In this document: positions 58,205 through 64,000 of the stretch, piece by piece
Layout: every line of letters begins with the position of its first letter
How positions within the stretch are numbered: the first letter of the stretch is position 1
Assembly (NCBI GenBank): GCA_964514585.1
Contig: CAZETU010000002.1
Coordinates: 1 to 64,000 of the forward strand
Length of the DNA: 64,000 nucleotides
Reading direction: 5' to 3'
From: Candidatus Woesearchaeota archaeon
Lineage (GTDB): Archaea > Nanobdellota > Nanobdellia > Pacearchaeales > GW2011-AR1
The notes under the pieces: model-generated
What the model was told of the DNA's origin: nothing
Databases searched by the model: none
What the model saw: the letters and a program-made list of their open reading frames with translations, nothing else
Made by a program: the position numbers and the translations under genes

Positions 58205-59206
58205 TTAAAGGGAGTTTCGGACGTTTTCTTTGAATTTTTCTATGTCTTTTGCTAGAATCATTGCGCCTGCTGCGTTTGTGTGACCACCCGCATTTCCTTC
58301 TTCTAGTTCTTTTACTCCGGCTTTTAGGGTGTCTGCCATGTTTATTTTTCCACCCGAACATCTTCCTGAGAATGAAATATACTTGCCTTTATTTTTAGGT
58401 GAAGCGAAGATATATGCTCCTTTATCTTTTTGGCTTATTATTCCTGATACTGGAACTTTGACTGAAAAGCTTGGTTCGAAATAGTAGTAATTTATGTCGC
58501 CTAGTTTTTCCTTTTTTGTTTCGTATTCTTCTACGAATTTTTGAACTTCGTCTTCGACTGGTTCTGAGTATTGTTTTAGTTTTTTTATTTCTTCGATTGA
58601 ATGTATTTGTTGGAGGATTTCGAAAGCTTTGTTTAGGTCTTTGTCGAAGTAGACTATGAAGTTGGTTATTATGCTTGTTGCGTTTTGTTTGAATTCGTCT
58701 AGGGTCATGTCGATTTGTTTTAGGTGGGCGTCGATGAAGTCTTGGTTTTCTGGGTAGAGGTGGCCTGCGTCTGTTATTGTTCCTATTAGGGCGAGCCATG
58801 GTTTTAGACTTGTAAGCTCTCCTGCGGTTCGACTTGATGGGAGGTAGCCTTGGTCTACTGTGATTAGTTCTAGAATTTCTTCTGGTATTGGGGTATCTCT
58901 TGGGTGATGGTCGGCGTAGAGAACTTGTTTGTCTCTTATTAGTTCTAGGTCTTCTGCAATTAGTCCTGGGGCGATGTCTGTTATTATTATTTTGTTGAAT
59001 TTTTCTAGGGAGTAGTCTTTTAGGGATGATTTTCGGATTGAATATGTGAATTGTTCTACTATTGCTTTTTTATCTTTACACCAGTCGTAGTATATGATCC
59101 CTGCGCAAAATCCGTCTCCGTCATCGTGGTGGATGATTGCGACTTTGTCTTCGCTAGTTATATTGTCTAGGAATTCTTTTGTTTCTTGAAATGTTATTTG
59201 TGGCAT
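58205..59206 (-). CDS. DHH-family phosphoesterase with DHHA1 domain
   Basis: HHDDGDG, IITD, ADHH, GGHTNAAG. Confidence 0.9.
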   Translation of the reverse strand: MPQITFQETKEFLDNITSEDKVAIIHHDDGDGFCAGIIYYDWCKDKKAIVEQFTYSIRKSSLKDYSLEKFNKIIITDIAPGLIAEDLELIRDKQVLYADHHPRDTPIPEEILELITVDQGYLPSSRTAGELTSLKPWLALIGTITDAGHLYPENQDFIDAHLKQIDMTLDEFKQNATSIITNFIVYFDKDLNKAFEILQQIHSIEEIKKLKQYSEPVEDEVQKFVEEYETKKEKLGDINYYYFEPSFSVKVPVSGIISQKDKGAYIFASPKNKGKYISFSGRCSGGKINMADTLKAGVKELEEGNAGGHTNAAGAMILAKDIEKFKENVRNSL

Positions 59207-59256: not shown

Positions 59257-59871
59257 ATGAGGTTGAAGAGTTTTGAGAGGGTGTTAAGGTTAATTTTGGC
59301 TTTGTTCTTTTTGTTGTCTGGGATTTTGGCTTTTGTTCTTGGGAATTGGTTTACGTTGTTTGTTTCGGCGATTTCGTTGTCTTTGGTGGTTTTTTCTGTG
59401 AAGTTTTCTGATAGGAAGGGGATTGAATTTTCTTCTCTTATTTCTTTGGTGTTTTTATTTTTTATTTTTGCGAGTCTTTTTTTGGGGGAGATAAGGTTTT
59501 TTTATCAGAGGTTTTGGTGGTGGGATTTGATGTTGCATACGGTTGCTGGGTTTAATATGGGGTTGATTGGGTTTTCTTTGTCGTATTATATGAATAGGGG
59601 CAGTAAACATATGGAGCTTAGTCCTTATTTTATTGCACTTTTCGGGTTTTGTTTTGCGATGACGCTTGGAGTTTTCTGGGAATTTTTTGAGTTTTCGATG
59701 GATTATTTTTTCGGGACTAGTATGTTGAAATCGGGGTTGGTTGATACGATAACGGATTTGATTGTGACTTCGGTTGGGGCTTTTGTCGTTTCTACTTTGG
59801 GGTTTTTGGGGTTGAAGCATTATTATGAGAGGGCTGCTGGTTTTTTTAATAATTTAATTTTTAGAATTTGA
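59257..59871 (+). CDS. Integral membrane protein (DUF2238-like), paralog of 20353..20988
   Basis: FWWWDLMLHT, GVFWEFFEF, GLVDTITDL. Confidence 0.75.
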   Translation: MRLKSFERVLRLILALFFLLSGILAFVLGNWFTLFVSAISLSLVVFSVKFSDRKGIEFSSLISLVFLFFIFASLFLGEIRFFYQRFWWWDLMLHTVAGFNMGLIGFSLSYYMNRGSKHMELSPYFIALFGFCFAMTLGVFWEFFEFSMDYFFGTSMLKSGLVDTITDLIVTSVGAFVVSTLGFLGLKHYYERAAGFFNNLIFRI

Positions 59872-59946: not shown

Positions 59947-60612
59947 ATGGTTGGGAAGAAGATGGTGATTGTTGTTGGCATTGCTGTATTTTTATTCTTG
60001 GTTTTATTCTTGGTTGATTTTGAGGTGGTTGAAAAAGGGGATGGTTCTCCTACCGTTGAGGAATTGGAAGTTAGTTTGCCTAGAGGGGCAGATTATAGTT
60101 ATGAGGTTGAATTTAATGAAATGGAAAAAATTACTGTGGAATGTGAAAAGTGTGATAAGAAGAATGAGTGTTTTTTTATTTGTGCAAATGAATGTTATGA
60201 TAAAAACATGTTTTTATCTGGAGTCTTGCCATTACTTGTTCCTGAGCTAGACAATGAAGGAGAGTGTCCGTGTTTATGTAGACCTCTTGTGCATATTAAT
60301 GAATTAAGATTTGTTAAAGCTATTGGGAATAAAGATGTAACAGAGTGTGAAAAAATAGATATTGAGATAGCTGATTTGGGAAAAGATAATTGTTATTTAA
60401 GCTTTGCAAATACTTTTCTAAATGAATCGATATGTAGTAAAATTACAAATGCTTCTTTAGTGAATGCATGTTATGTCTATCTTTCTGTTTTGAAAAAAGA
60501 TGTAGGTCTTTGTGAAAATATTATTGAAGATGGGACTTTAAGATGGAATCAAACTAGTTGCGAAGATGTCTTAAAAAGTGGCAGAGAGTTTAGTTTCGCC
60601 ATTCCAAAGTAG
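59947..60612 (+). CDS. Membrane-anchored Cys-rich protein (C..I...C.Y..A repeats)
   Basis: N-terminal TM; CEKI..KDNCYLSFA, CSKI..NACYVYLS repeats. Confidence 0.65.
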   Translation: MVGKKMVIVVGIAVFLFLVLFLVDFEVVEKGDGSPTVEELEVSLPRGADYSYEVEFNEMEKITVECEKCDKKNECFFICANECYDKNMFLSGVLPLLVPELDNEGECPCLCRPLVHINELRFVKAIGNKDVTECEKIDIEIADLGKDNCYLSFANTFLNESICSKITNASLVNACYVYLSVLKKDVGLCENIIEDGTLRWNQTSCEDVLKSGREFSFAIPK

Positions 60613-60909
60613 TGTCGTTTGGAAAAATTTATAAGGGGAGTTCTCTGTTAATATTTAATATTATTATTAGAAACAACGACAAACAGTAACCCTCCAGATA
60701 TTTCAGGATGTTTTTCATCCAAGTGACCTTATTTTTTAGCTTAGATGAATCTGCGTTTTATCTTTGAAATATCTTGGAATACGTCGCTGTTCTTATGAAA
60801 TATCTTAGAATAAGTGGGGATTGGTAGGTTATTGAAAGGAACGGATTGCGGAAAACGTGTTGTATTTTATGAACGCAATGAAACGTGTTTTGGTTGAAAG
60901 GGGTTTTTC

Positions 60910-62520
60910 ATGTTTAAGGTAAGGATGTTTGTGATTGTGTTGGTGACGTGCGGTGTGGCTTGCGGGCAGTTTACTGGCGGAACTGTGGCGGGAACTGAGG
61001 TAGAGATTGTCATGGAAGGAGATTTGTCTGTTTCAGAGATGATTGGAGATAGGGAGGTTGATCTGGGCGAAATCTCCTTTGATGGTAGAACTGGCAAAGT
61101 TTCTATTGATGCCGGCATTTTTAGGTCGGAGTCTTTTCCTGATGGAACGGGGAAGATAGAGATGGGTAATCCGTTTCTCAGAGCCGGATTTATCAATGAT
61201 GATAATGGGGATCCACGGGCTATTATGTTTATTACTGGAGACGTGGGTCCTTTGGGTAGCGTTACGATTGAAATGGAGGGAGAGGCTTGGCAGTTTATGA
61301 CTGGAACGACTGCTGGTGTAGATGTTCCTTTGGATCAATGGCCCGAACCTAGACCTCTTAGGATTAAATGGGAGGGGCCTCTTGGGGAAGCGGTTGAGTA
61401 TTCGGTTGATTCGACTTGGGAGTTTGCAGTGGCGGCTTCTGAGTATATTGATTTTGATTTACTCGGCGATGAGATGTCCGATGTGTCGACGTTTTCTCTT
61501 TCTCTTGTCGATTTCTTCGGTGATTTGGCAAGGTCCTGGCTTGATGAGGGTGTTCTTGAGTTTACAGAATTGCCGAGCTATATGGATCCTAGCATCTCTG
61601 CTGCTGAAGCTCTTCGTGAACGGTTGATTGTGAGTGGCGATTTCGTTTTCGATCCCACTTCTGATCCTGGCACCGAACCTGTTGATCCCGGCACCGAACC
61701 TGTTGTCCCCGGCACCGAACCTGTTGATCCCGGCACCGAACCTGTTGATCCCGGCACCGAACCTGTTTTCGATCCAGCAGTGAGGTATGGGCTTGGTTTT
61801 GATACTGGCTTTATTAAGTACAGTACGGGGGAAACGGTTAAGGTTGTCTTAATGAATTCTTCTCCGCATGATATCCAAATGTATTCTGATGGAGCGGGCT
61901 ATTCGGGAGGAGGGATTCTTACTGGAGAGTATCCTGCGAGCTATGGGGATGAAGGTGGTCCAACGAATTCGGTGGAGGTGTCTTATGTTTCTAAGAAAGA
62001 TCTCTTTGCTTCTCGTGATTATGATGCTTTCTCTTTGGGGAAGTGGGTGGGTCCGGATCTGAGTTCTGATGGTGGGGATCCTACTGAGGGGGTTTATTTG
62101 CCGGTTGTTGTTGCTTATGTCACTCCGATTGGTGATATCCCTACTGAAGGTGAGGCGACCTATTTTGGCAAGAATGGTGCGCTTGGAAAGGTCATTTATC
62201 TGAAGAGAGATATTGACTCCTTGCCGTTTGCGGCCAATGTCTTTCTGAAAGCTGAATTTGCTAAGGGTCTTATCAGTGGGGGTATTAACAATATCTATCT
62301 TGAGGATGGCAGCCATATGTCGGCATTTGGTCTCCTTCTTGTGATGGGGAAAAATGGTATTGCTATTGGTGAGATAACTCACGGCATGGCGGCTGGTAGA
62401 GGGAGGGCTACTACTATCTTTGTTGGAGAAGATGCCGGAGGGATAATCGGATCTGCTCTTTTCAAGGGAAGTGAGGGTAAGATCGAAGTCCCGATTATTT
62501 TCGGTGCTGATCGTCAATAG
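60910..62520 (+). CDS. Secreted protein with C-terminal TbpB-like (Slam-substrate) beta-barrel
   Basis: Signal peptide; Pro-rich linker; DIPTEGEATYFG...AEFAKGLISG...FVGEDAGGIIG...FGADRQ, resembling the TbpB/HpuA 8-stranded barrel. Confidence 0.65.
   Translation: MFKVRMFVIVLVTCGVACGQFTGGTVAGTEVEIVMEGDLSVSEMIGDREVDLGEISFDGRTGKVSIDAGIFRSESFPDGTGKIEMGNPFLRAGFINDDNGDPRAIMFITGDVGPLGSVTIEMEGEAWQFMTGTTAGVDVPLDQWPEPRPLRIKWEGPLGEAVEYSVDSTWEFAVAASEYIDFDLLGDEMSDVSTFSLSLVDFFGDLARSWLDEGVLEFTELPSYMDPSISAAEALRERLIVSGDFVFDPTSDPGTEPVDPGTEPVVPGTEPVDPGTEPVDPGTEPVFDPAVRYGLGFDTGFIKYSTGETVKVVLMNSSPHDIQMYSDGAGYSGGGILTGEYPASYGDEGGPTNSVEVSYVSKKDLFASRDYDAFSLGKWVGPDLSSDGGDPTEGVYLPVVVAYVTPIGDIPTEGEATYFGKNGALGKVIYLKRDIDSLPFAANVFLKAEFAKGLISGGINNIYLEDGSHMSAFGLLLVMGKNGIAIGEITHGMAAGRGRATTIFVGEDAGGIIGSALFKGSEGKIEVPIIFGADRQ
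61663..61767 (+). repeat. Five tandem 21-bp repeats encoding (D/V)PGTEPV
   Basis: GATCCCGGCACCGAACCTGTT x5 with minor variants. Confidence 0.95.
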
Positions 62521-62546
62521 TTTCGTCTAGGAAAAGGAGTATTACA

Positions 62547-63752
62547 ATGAAGCAGCTACTAGTGTTCTTCGGAGTTTCTTTGGTGTTTGCGGGAACTTCC
62601 GTTGCGTCTTTATCAGTTGGCGAAATGCAAGTGTTATTCAATTCCGGCATGGATGATGTCGAGACTGGGGAGCTTGAGGGATTCGAGAGTGCTATCGAGA
62701 AGTTTGAGACGATACGTGATGACTATCCAACTCTTCCTCGAATCAGGTTGGAACTAGGAAACGCGTATCGTCTGAATGAGCAAGGATTTTCGGCTGGTCG
62801 AGAGTTTGAGGAAGCTCTTGCTCTTGATCTCGATGATGAGATATCTGCCGAAAGAAGGGCAGGTATTGAGAAGTACATCGATGCTTATACGCGTCCGAAA
62901 CTAGACGTGGAGGTCGGTGTCAAGGTTATGCACAATGATAACGTTACAGCGGGGCCGTCTGATGACCTTGTTACTCTTTGGGGAATTGATGGATGGCGGC
63001 TTGGCGAGGGTCGCAAGAAGTCGGACAATGCGCTTTTAACGTCTATTGGGATATCTTATGTTGTCCCGATGGATGATGCGATTTCATGGTTCACCTCTTT
63101 CAACTTCGATTCAACGAACTACAGTTCGTTGGAGGACCATGATTTCCAGCTTGCCAGACTTTACACTGGCCTGGCGGTCAAGGCGGGGGAAGTGTTATTG
63201 CAGTTACCGCTTACTGCGGATTATTCCCTGTACAGGGGGGACCCTTATGCGGCCAACATTGGGGTCAATCCCCGTGCTACGATTGATTTGGGGGAGGGTT
63301 TCTCTTTGAGTGTTTTGGCTATGGTCTCTAAGAGAGACTGTCCTTTCCTCTGGGCTCGGACGGGCTTGGTATATGGGGGAGGTCTTTCCCTTCGCAAGGA
63401 TTTTGGCAAGGGCCTTGTTGCTTCCGGAGGGTATCAGCGCTTGAGGGAGGATACGAAACTCGCTTCGTATAGCGCCGACGTGGATTTCTTCTACGCTAGG
63501 TTCATGAAGACTTGGGTCGATTTTTCAGTGAACTTTTCCCCGAGTCTTTCCCTCAGGGAATGTGACGAATCTTTGCCGTATCTCACTGAGCCTCGAGAGG
63601 ACAAGCGGCTTACTTTGCCGGTTGGTATCGAGTATGCCGTTACCGATGGTCTGAGTTTCGTGGCGGAATATATTCGAACAGAAAATAGGTCTGATGATCT
63701 GTTCGAGCATGACCAGGAGAAGGTCATCGGCGGATTTATTTTCAGATTCTAG
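62547..63752 (+). CDS. Slam/DUF560-like outer-membrane protein (TPR + beta-barrel; T11SS transporter)
   Basis: Signal peptide; TPR segment PRIRLELGNAY...REFEEAL; HNDNVTAGP; alternating beta strands; terminal aromatic GGFIFRF; bacterial SD AAGGAG. Confidence 0.75.
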   Translation: MKQLLVFFGVSLVFAGTSVASLSVGEMQVLFNSGMDDVETGELEGFESAIEKFETIRDDYPTLPRIRLELGNAYRLNEQGFSAGREFEEALALDLDDEISAERRAGIEKYIDAYTRPKLDVEVGVKVMHNDNVTAGPSDDLVTLWGIDGWRLGEGRKKSDNALLTSIGISYVVPMDDAISWFTSFNFDSTNYSSLEDHDFQLARLYTGLAVKAGEVLLQLPLTADYSLYRGDPYAANIGVNPRATIDLGEGFSLSVLAMVSKRDCPFLWARTGLVYGGGLSLRKDFGKGLVASGGYQRLREDTKLASYSADVDFFYARFMKTWVDFSVNFSPSLSLRECDESLPYLTEPREDKRLTLPVGIEYAVTDGLSFVAEYIRTENRSDDLFEHDQEKVIGGFIFRF

Positions 63753-63760
63753 TTCATCCG

Positions 63761-63815
63761 GGTAGGTTATCGAGCACACCTTTGGGTGTTGTCTTGAGCC
63801 TACCCTTACTTTTTT
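63761..63815 (+). terminator. Bacterial-style intrinsic terminator after the Slam-like gene
   Basis: GGGTAGG...CACACC-TTTG-GGTGT...CCTACCC followed by a T tract. Confidence 0.6.
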
Positions 63816-63878
63816 CTTTATATAGTCTACTATATGGTATGCTTTATGTTCTTGTAAGAAGAAATAAGGGATTTTTAT

Positions 63879-64000
63879 TTATTCAAAGTCTGTAGCTAAC
63901 TTGAAAATTAAGTCTTCTTGGAAGTGTGGGGTTATGATTTGAACTCCAACATCTTTGTTGTCTATTTTCCCTGCTGGAGTTGAAATTGCTGGGAGGCCTG
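63879..64000 (-). CDS. gatA: Asp/Glu-tRNA amidotransferase subunit A, C-terminal end (partial)
   Basis: Manual translation GLPAISTPAGKIDNKDVGVQIITPHFQEDLIFKLATDFE*, the amidase C-terminal motif. Confidence 0.75.
   Translation of the reverse strand, partial: GLPAISTPAGKIDNKDVGVQIITPHFQEDLIFKLATDFE

Follow-up and report, generated by a model that had tools for sequence, protein, structure and literature searches.

A Slam-type translocon gene and an upstream putative TbpB-like cargo gene in the chromosome of a small-genome archaeon

The DNA analyzed here (the window) is a stretch of 64,000 nucleotides from a Candidatus Woesearchaeota archaeon, comprising positions 1 to 64,000 of a contig of 203,686 bp (C2), so that window and contig positions coincide. 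Close to its right end lie two intact, co-oriented open reading frames (ORFs) on the plus strand, ORF A (60910..62520; 536 aa, isoelectric point [pI] 4.1) and ORF B (62547..63752; 401 aa), only 26 bp apart. A first-pass annotation made from the sequence alone had proposed that they form a Slam/type XI secretion system (T11SS) pair of the Gram-negative kind, i.e., an outer membrane barrel and its TbpB-like cargo, and its coordinates for both genes proved exact. Type XI secretion and beta-barrel outer membrane proteins are regarded as inventions of diderm bacteria that depend on the beta-barrel assembly machinery (BAM).

ORF B carries all of the features that had been read from its sequence, namely, a signal peptide (residues 1 to 22), TPR-like helices (residues 24 to 114), and a region of beta strands (residues 118 to 401) that ends in phenylalanine (C-terminal end FIFRF). 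An exhaustive phmmer search of 1.84 billion representative sequences yielded 201 homologues at an E value of ≤1e-3, the best of which (E = 2.9e-55) aligns with residues 1 to 397. Among 83 aligned homologues, 71 match Pfam SlipAM and 63 match TPR_Slam, the Slam-specific TPR family, and ORF B keeps the family residue at 14 of the 14 invariant or near-invariant columns. The AlphaFold2 model built on this 83-homologue alignment has a mean predicted local distance difference test score (pLDDT) of 94.7 and a predicted template modeling (TM) score of 0.84. By our own count of its DSSP string, it contains 14 long strands over residues 118 to 400 plus a short hairpin at residues 141 to 151, the 14-strand barrel that the structural check of the earlier proposal called for. 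The best matches of the model in a Foldseek search of the PDB are likewise 14-strand outer membrane barrels: OmpG (target-normalized TM score up to 0.72), CymA, and FadL; none among the matches listed is titled Slam or T11SS. The first TPR segment of longer bacterial homologues has ~30 residues that are absent from ORF B and its nearest relatives, and several otherwise conserved motifs are altered in ORF B. As judged from its sequence and predicted fold, ORF B is a divergent but real Slam/DUF560 protein.

ORF A is probably a T11SS cargo protein with a TbpB-like C-terminal barrel domain. Its N terminus is a hydrophobic leader with two cysteines, in the contexts LVTC and GVAC, both of which are noncanonical lipoboxes. 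The leader is followed by a strongly acidic N-domain (approximately residues 20 to 262, pI about 4), for which a PDB sequence search detected no relatives and an Atlas search gave no usable match. Next come a linker of five PGTEPVD units, encoded by a 21-bp tandem repeat at 61662..61770 (repeat family D1), and the TbpB_B_D-like domain of ~250 aa (approximately residues 290 to 536; nucleotides 61777 to 62517). The copy number of the 21-bp repeat differs between samples: ORF A is 536 aa long or, with one unit fewer in one assembly, 529 aa long.

The C-terminal domain is best recognized through bacterial relatives of the pair. In loci of uncultured Ignavibacteriales (L013) and Pirellulales (L014), the gene directly upstream of the Slam gene encodes a protein of ~1,011 aa whose C terminus scores above the PF01298 and FHBP_C cutoffs (43 to 53 bits for PF01298). 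The C terminus of ORF A matches that of the Pirellulales cargo by BLASTP with an E value of 3e-8 (28% over 155 aa) and that of the Ignavibacteriales cargo with an E value of 9e-6 (25% over 247 aa), and an hhalign comparison with the sister cargo gave an E value of 1.1e-4 and a probability of 56%. When a joint profile of four sequences was searched against the PDB, it matched only fHbp (E = 2e-4), NHBA, hemophilin, and TbpB chains. In the Atlas, the feature neighbors of ORF A are TbpB_B_D clusters (score 0.87, with 176 to 183 shared features in the four best rows), and all 10 of the family-bearing matches are TbpB_B_D; the structure search there, which relied on its own low-confidence model, aligned residues 286 to 536 with Slam-dependent lipoprotein/TbpB_B_D clusters at hit-normalized TM scores of 0.57 to 0.59. 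The end of the protein, IFVGEDAGGIIGSALF...IIFGADRQ, also resembles what we take to be a TbpB/fHbp motif (FxGxxAxxxxG...FGAxRQ-like). Outside its own population, only cargo C termini of the L013/L014 type are detectably similar to ORF A; a metagenome scan for cargo relatives added only two further Pirellulales-type loci, and a word-indexed protein search with ORF A or ORF B returned near-identical copies only. A complex prediction for the ORF B barrel and the ORF A C terminus scored 0.02 and is evidence neither way. Overall, the earlier claim that ORF A ends in a TbpB-like barrel stands with respect to its homology to TbpB_B_D cargo and its position as a cargo gene, but it found no backing in a direct PF01298 match, of which the host genome has none, or in a usable fold model.

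Immediately downstream of ORF B, a compound hairpin (63760 to 63805; ΔG of −26.8 kcal/mol, z score of −4.3, not equaled by any of 200 shuffles) precedes a U-run. This terminator-like element (63760..63818, plus strand) lies in the convergent spacer common to the pair and gatA and closes the pair, in line with the intrinsic terminator described before; a simple consensus terminator scan missed it because of its long loop. On the other side, the AT-rich intergenic region upstream of the pair (60613..60909, plus strand) carries a Shine-Dalgarno (SD)-like motif, AAGGGG at 60898 to 60903, before ORF A, and ORF B is preceded by AGGAG at 62535 to 62539. These motifs had been called bacterial SD sites. 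They are present but are not diagnostic of a bacterial origin, since the host 16S rRNA has the 3′ end GATCACCTCCT and ~22% of long host ORFs carry a 4-mer SD, so that the host could use them. A scan for sigma-70 promoters gave a result at or below chance. The same intergenic region contains a 20-nt direct repeat (60765 to 60784, TGAAATATCTTGGAATACGT, and 60796 to 60815, TGAAATATCTTAGAATAAGT; 31 nt apart; family D8), which may be a binding site for a regulator.

The pair is higher in GC than its host, as reported initially: the GC content of 60910 to 63752 is 0.482, versus a genome mean of 0.372 in 3-kb windows (z score of 3.4; 0.15% of windows are as high). Part of this excess is attributable to amino acid composition. 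The GC content at third codon positions (GC3) of ORF A is 0.41, within the host range, and the excess is mainly at codon positions 1 and 2; the GC3 of ORF B, 0.52, falls in the top 2.3% of the host. The flanks are AT-rich, as described, with a gene for a Cys-rich membrane or secreted protein (59947-60612, plus strand; GC3 0.24) on the left and, on the right, the 3′ end of the amidase gene gatA (63879..64000, minus strand), which extends to C2:65210. Farther left lie a gene for a DUF2238 membrane protein (59257-59871, plus strand; GC3 0.44), AT-rich and host-like as is the Cys-rich gene, and a phosphoesterase gene with Pfam DHH and DHHA1 domains (58205..59206, minus strand).

That the contig carrying the pair is archaeal and the genome small was also confirmed. 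An archaeal 16S rRNA gene (1,316 bits) is located on another contig (C1), and within 15 kb upstream of the pair are genes for FttA/aCPSF1, a proteasome subunit, aIF-1A, a KRR1/Dim2-type KH protein, TYW3, and a presenilin-type signal peptide peptidase. The genome comprises ~1.04 Mb in 18 contigs, with estimated completeness of 89.65% and contamination of 0.54%; sizes range from 0.5 to 1.2 Mb in the genus, 0.6 to 0.9 Mb in the order, and 0.7 to 1.8 Mb in the class, which would be consistent with the DPANN label of the first-pass annotation.

A bacterial pair could have been joined to archaeal DNA by misassembly or binning, a worry nourished by the atypical GC content of the island and by the presence in the bin of at least one Bacteroidota-type contaminant contig (C8). 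The exact ORF B protein occurs on at least 15 contigs, of which we examined seven places from seven samples (ENA, JGI, and Logan). Three loci (L002, L003, and L004) are collinear with C2 over both junctions at 99.87 to 99.91% identity, and three others (L005 to L007) cross the right junction; identity is no lower than 99.87% across the collinear sequence of all seven. The assemblies that span the junctions are independent: an ENA contig of 448 kb, a JGI contig of 38.7 kb, and an ENA contig of 13.6 kb, all with at least 99.87% identity. The repeat within ORF A accounts for a single 21-bp gap in L002, and two Logan contigs terminate exactly at C2:61738, within this repeat. Moreover, the pair is situated 60 kb into a 204-kb contig rich in archaeal genes, and the same junction recurs in a diverged lineage (L009, below). 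Thus, the suspicion of a chimeric assembly raised by the first-pass annotation can be dismissed, and an artefact is effectively refuted.

The two genes occupy a variable spot between gatA and the DHH phosphoesterase gene. In 10 of 10 readable genomes of the same genus (loci L024 to L033), gatA and the DHH phosphoesterase gene are adjacent, with a spacer of 4 bp to 1.1 kb; the phosphoesterase gene thus marks the left border of the spot, as the ancestral neighbor of gatA, and gatA marks the right border. In our genome the spacer measures 4.67 kb and holds the AT-rich DUF2238 and Cys-rich genes together with the GC-rich pair; neither of these two AT-rich genes lies between the DHH gene and gatA in the relatives. 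The spacer often holds a conserved gene of 106 to 111 aa (MKTSKIGEL...WLWYD...DENGDGKPD), which is missing from our genome, and in L029 it holds a gene for a 209-aa membrane protein. No convincing direct repeats or att-like sites were detected on the flanks of the island, and no integrase was present among the called neighbor genes.

The pair is not confined to one genome: Slam pairs are also present at this spot in two other lineages of archaea. In the first (L009), ORF B is 91%, the C terminus of ORF A 81%, and the adjoining gatA 94% identical to their counterparts; the junction sequence is the same as ours, and the terminator hairpin persists with its stem changed in sequence. In the second (L012), the Slam protein (P0006) is only 29% identical to ORF B. 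Upstream of its gene are the last 55 residues of a gene with a TbpB-like cargo end, ending in AAFVGPNAEEIMGVWSF...GFIAGKR, and downstream are a genus-specific gene of 111 aa, which shares 64% identity with its counterpart in a congener, and a gatA with 79% identity to ours; the junction is unlike that in our genome. The three archaeal loci and the bacterial sister loci all keep the order of cargo and then Slam as well as the tight spacing.

Comparison of our genome with L009 provides a measure of selection. The junction is the same in both, so the divergence of their pairs accumulated inside archaea. The ratio of nonsynonymous to synonymous substitution rates (dN/dS) is 0.29 for ORF B (P of about 1e-8 by an approximate Fisher test), 0.56 for the C terminus of ORF A (P of about 0.01), and 0.06 for gatA. 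These ratios indicate that both genes have been under purifying selection during their residence in archaea. The synonymous divergence (dS) of the island, 0.18 to 0.21, is lower than that of gatA, 0.53, which suggests either that the cassette was exchanged between the lineages after their split or that its synonymous sites are constrained.

In the phylogenetic tree, ORF B, P0002, P0004, P0005, and P0006 form one clade (Shimodaira-Hasegawa-like approximate likelihood ratio test [SH-aLRT] support of 99), which is sister to the Slams of Ignavibacteriales and Pirellulales (SH-aLRT of 98 for the joint clade). The nearest named relatives are the pairs of these two orders, and import from a diderm bacterium, one of the alternatives that the first-pass annotation had put forward, is the best reading of the origin. 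As regards a donor, the closest Slams, P0004 (33% identity) and P0005 (36% identity), are found on short, unlabeled contigs. That of P0004 (L011) encodes a PEP-CTERM protein and is probably bacterial; the 233-aa neighbor of P0004 had no match among 120 genomes from the archaeal family. An approximately unbiased (AU) test did not reject a single clade of the Slams in archaeal context, ORF B, P0002, and P0006 (P = 0.51); one acquisition followed by spread and two acquisitions at the same spot are both possible. The L013 (392-5895) and L014 (1282-6757) loci are three-gene loci, in which a protein of 376 to 384 aa precedes a 1,011-aa vWA-like TbpB_B_D/FHBP_C protein and the Slam.

Taking these lines of evidence together, we favor, with a probability of roughly 0.72, the interpretation that ORF A and ORF B are a two-gene cassette of bacterial origin, composed of a Slam-type translocon gene and an upstream gene for a TbpB-like cargo, which was inserted into an archaeal chromosome and has been kept there under purifying selection. 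A number of observations weigh against this interpretation. Some of them concern the identity of the proteins. Pfam SlipAM (PF04575) matches ORF B only over residues 121 to 257 and below its cutoff of 22 (E = 6.9e-4, 19.7 bits; 20.1 bits in the whole-genome scan), so that the proposed DUF560/Slam assignment failed in the direct profile search but held through the 71 of 83 homologues that match SlipAM. ORF A alone has no Pfam match even at an E value of ≤10, whether whole or as either half, and no NCBIfam match, and its two-sequence profile retrieved no TbpB-like chain from the PDB. The AlphaFold2 model of ORF A, made from a seven-row alignment, has a pLDDT of 29.6, and its fold is not usable; DSSP assigns 8 or 9 strands to residues 415 to 531 of this untrustworthy model. 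The lipobox of ORF A is noncanonical, and there are very few lipobox proteins in the host; lipidation of the cargo is not required in T11SS (PMC12282271).

Other observations against it concern the setting. Searches for Omp85/BamA, Lgt, LspA, LolA, and Skp, whose controls gave the expected matches, found none of them in the genome (89.65% complete), so the usual route for barrel assembly and cargo delivery is missing. The search for BamA or other outer membrane proteins that the first-pass annotation had recommended thus yielded no BamA, and the only matches of the outer membrane protein type were ORF B itself and a TonB-dependent receptor on the contaminant contig. When ORF B was combined with its closest relatives into a profile, this had no match in 48 other genomes of the genus and, in 400 other genomes of the phylum, matched TPR regions only (profile positions 5 to 159) and nothing over the barrel, which implies that the pair is dispensable. 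The stem branch of ORF B is very long (1.5 substitutions per site) and could reflect relaxed constraint or a changed function.

Several of these points would also be expected if the pair were a nonfunctional passenger, a fairly recent bacterial import that is useless without an outer membrane and has not yet decayed. The dN/dS values of 0.29 to 0.56 are far above that of gatA, the pair is not found in the other genomes of the genus and phylum searched, no BAM, Lol, or Skp components were found, ORF B has its long stem and its score under the Pfam cutoff, and the genome has several other GC-rich islands of orphan genes. We nevertheless consider a passenger unlikely, given that both ORFs are intact in two lineages with a common junction and dN/dS values significantly below 1, that all conserved family columns are kept and the fold of ORF B is predicted with very high confidence, and that another congener has a second, very divergent intact Slam at this spot; a genome reduced to 1 Mb would also not be expected to keep 2.8 kb of dead weight for long. 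It is highly improbable, in our view, that ORF B has ceased to secrete ORF A and has been repurposed as a self-inserting pore, acting, for instance, in the membrane of a partner or in a vesicle for nutrient uptake or attack, with ORF A as a separate surface or adhesion protein. The strong acceleration of the ORF B lineage, a TPR arm shorter than those of bacterial homologues, and the altered motifs would agree with such a change, as would the dependence of DPANN-type archaea on partner contact, with bacterial partners suggested for some of them (PMC6349945). The order of cargo and then Slam and the tight spacing in all archaeal and bacterial sister loci argue in the opposite direction, and so does the C-terminal domain of ORF A, a domain of the targeting type that is kept under purifying selection.

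If the cassette works as a T11SS, both proteins would leave the cytoplasm via Sec, through their signal peptides, and ORF B would form its 14-strand barrel in a lipid bilayer that lies beyond the cytoplasmic membrane. The TPR arm of ORF B could then capture the C-terminal barrel domain of unfolded ORF A, and the barrel could pass ORF A through without ATP or proton motive force, as Slam1 does in liposomes, so that translocation would expose or release the acidic N-terminal effector domain of ORF A. Candidates for the receiving bilayer are a vesicle, the membrane or envelope of a partner cell, and an unrecognized outer layer. In proteoliposomes, Slam1 alone translocates unfolded TbpB; added Bam left its efficiency unchanged and Skp only improved it, from which the authors concluded that Slam1 relies on periplasmic chaperones and not on ATP or proton motive force (PMC9090332). 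The defining parts of a T11SS cargo are a variable N-terminal effector and a C-terminal eight-strand barrel (PMC12282271). A broader proposal, which we regard as quite unlikely, is that the genus uses a barrel translocon of the outer membrane type without BAM, either in an unrecognized outer lipid layer or by handing barrel and cargo over to a diderm bacterial partner, whose envelope would receive them. On this reading, Slam pairs would have arrived at this one chromosomal site at least twice, possibly independently, which would suggest that their function is repeatedly selected in these archaea. Co-occurrence data have suggested bacterial partners for some Pacearchaeota and Woesearchaeota (PMC6349945), and delivery into such a partner, if true, would amount to molecular evidence that a DPANN-type archaeon lives in symbiosis with a bacterium.

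The remainder of the bin contains further sequences of unusual composition. Contig C8 (12,557 bp, GC content of 0.31; locus L036) is of the Bacteroidota type and looks like contamination. It encodes a TonB-dependent receptor with a CarboxypepD_reg domain beside a sulfatase gene and, elsewhere, an FG-GAP protein with a Por_Secre_tail sorting domain of the type IX secretion system. This receptor, the sole TonB receptor match in the bin, was rejected as a partner of the pair because it is encoded on the contaminant contig. Several further GC-rich islands of orphan genes are scattered through the genome. At C2:152500-162500 (L020; GC content of 0.44 to 0.50), five tRNA genes are interspersed with orphan ORFs that have no Pfam match, one of which has a leader with a canonical lipobox (MKRQILIAVALVAITALTGC); the region looks like an accumulation zone for foreign DNA. 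The ~3-kb segment C2:193864-196870 (L021:865-3870; GC content of 0.49 to 0.55) lacks Rfam matches, as well as ORFs of >145 aa on both strands, and could represent degraded foreign genes or something noncoding. A GC-rich island (0.46) at C5:31000-39000 (L037) encodes small orphan proteins, several with pilin-like hydrophobic N termini, and tblastn located two IS200/Y1 transposase-like copies at C5:31157-31564 and C5:59602-60009. Contig C15 (3,528 bp, GC content of 0.52), where ORFs lie next to the gene of an ATPase with the Walker A motif GEPGTGKS, is unlike the rest of the bin in composition and may be a mobile element or a contaminant.

How does the archaeal pair compare with known systems? 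The Slam1-TbpB/LbpB/fHbp and Slam2-HpuA systems of Neisseria and Moraxella are likewise encoded by two adjacent genes; their translocons also consist of a signal peptide, an N-terminal TPR arm, and a 14-strand barrel with an aromatic end, and their cargo combines a variable N-terminal part with a C-terminal TbpB-type barrel domain, as predicted for ORF A. In contrast to these systems, the host here is an archaeon, and searches of its genome detected none of BAM, Lol, Skp, Lgt, and LspA; ORF B narrowly misses the Pfam cutoff, and its TPR arm is shorter; the N-domain of ORF A is without known relatives and its lipobox is noncanonical; and a TonB-dependent receptor partner is lacking, the only one in the bin being that of the contaminant contig. 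In the soluble-cargo T11SS represented by HrpB-HrpC of Xenorhabdus and HphA of Acinetobacter, the cargo does not have to be lipidated and is guided to the DUF560 protein by an eight-strand barrel at its C terminus (PMC12282271), a model that would suit ORF A if it is not acylated. Unlike hemophilin-type cargo, ORF A has no heme-binding handle and its N-domain is not detectably similar, and the known systems of this type are proteobacterial.

The nearest named relatives of ORF B, the Ignavibacteriales and Pirellulales loci, share the order of cargo and then Slam. They differ in that their hosts are diderm bacteria, their cargo, at twice the length, contains vWA-like domains, a third gene (376 to 384 aa) lies upstream, and their Slams are only 27 to 28% identical to ORF B. 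Two surveys of T11SS (PMC8406197 and PMC12282271) describe the system across Proteobacteria, and archaea are not mentioned in them. The Ignavibacteriales and Pirellulales loci extend T11SS-like pairs beyond Proteobacteria, to Ignavibacteriota and Planctomycetota, and the locus studied here adds a recognizable Slam-cargo pair in a host without the known requirements, with a translocon that is shortened and accelerated. If the pair is expressed, either an archaeal setting allows a Slam barrel to be assembled and to function without BAM, or these ultrasmall archaea have an unrecognized envelope layer or partner interaction, or the pair has acquired a new role. What sets this case apart from the known systems is that a seemingly complete translocon-cargo pair has been fixed in archaeal chromosomes, at one locus in three lineages and under purifying selection.

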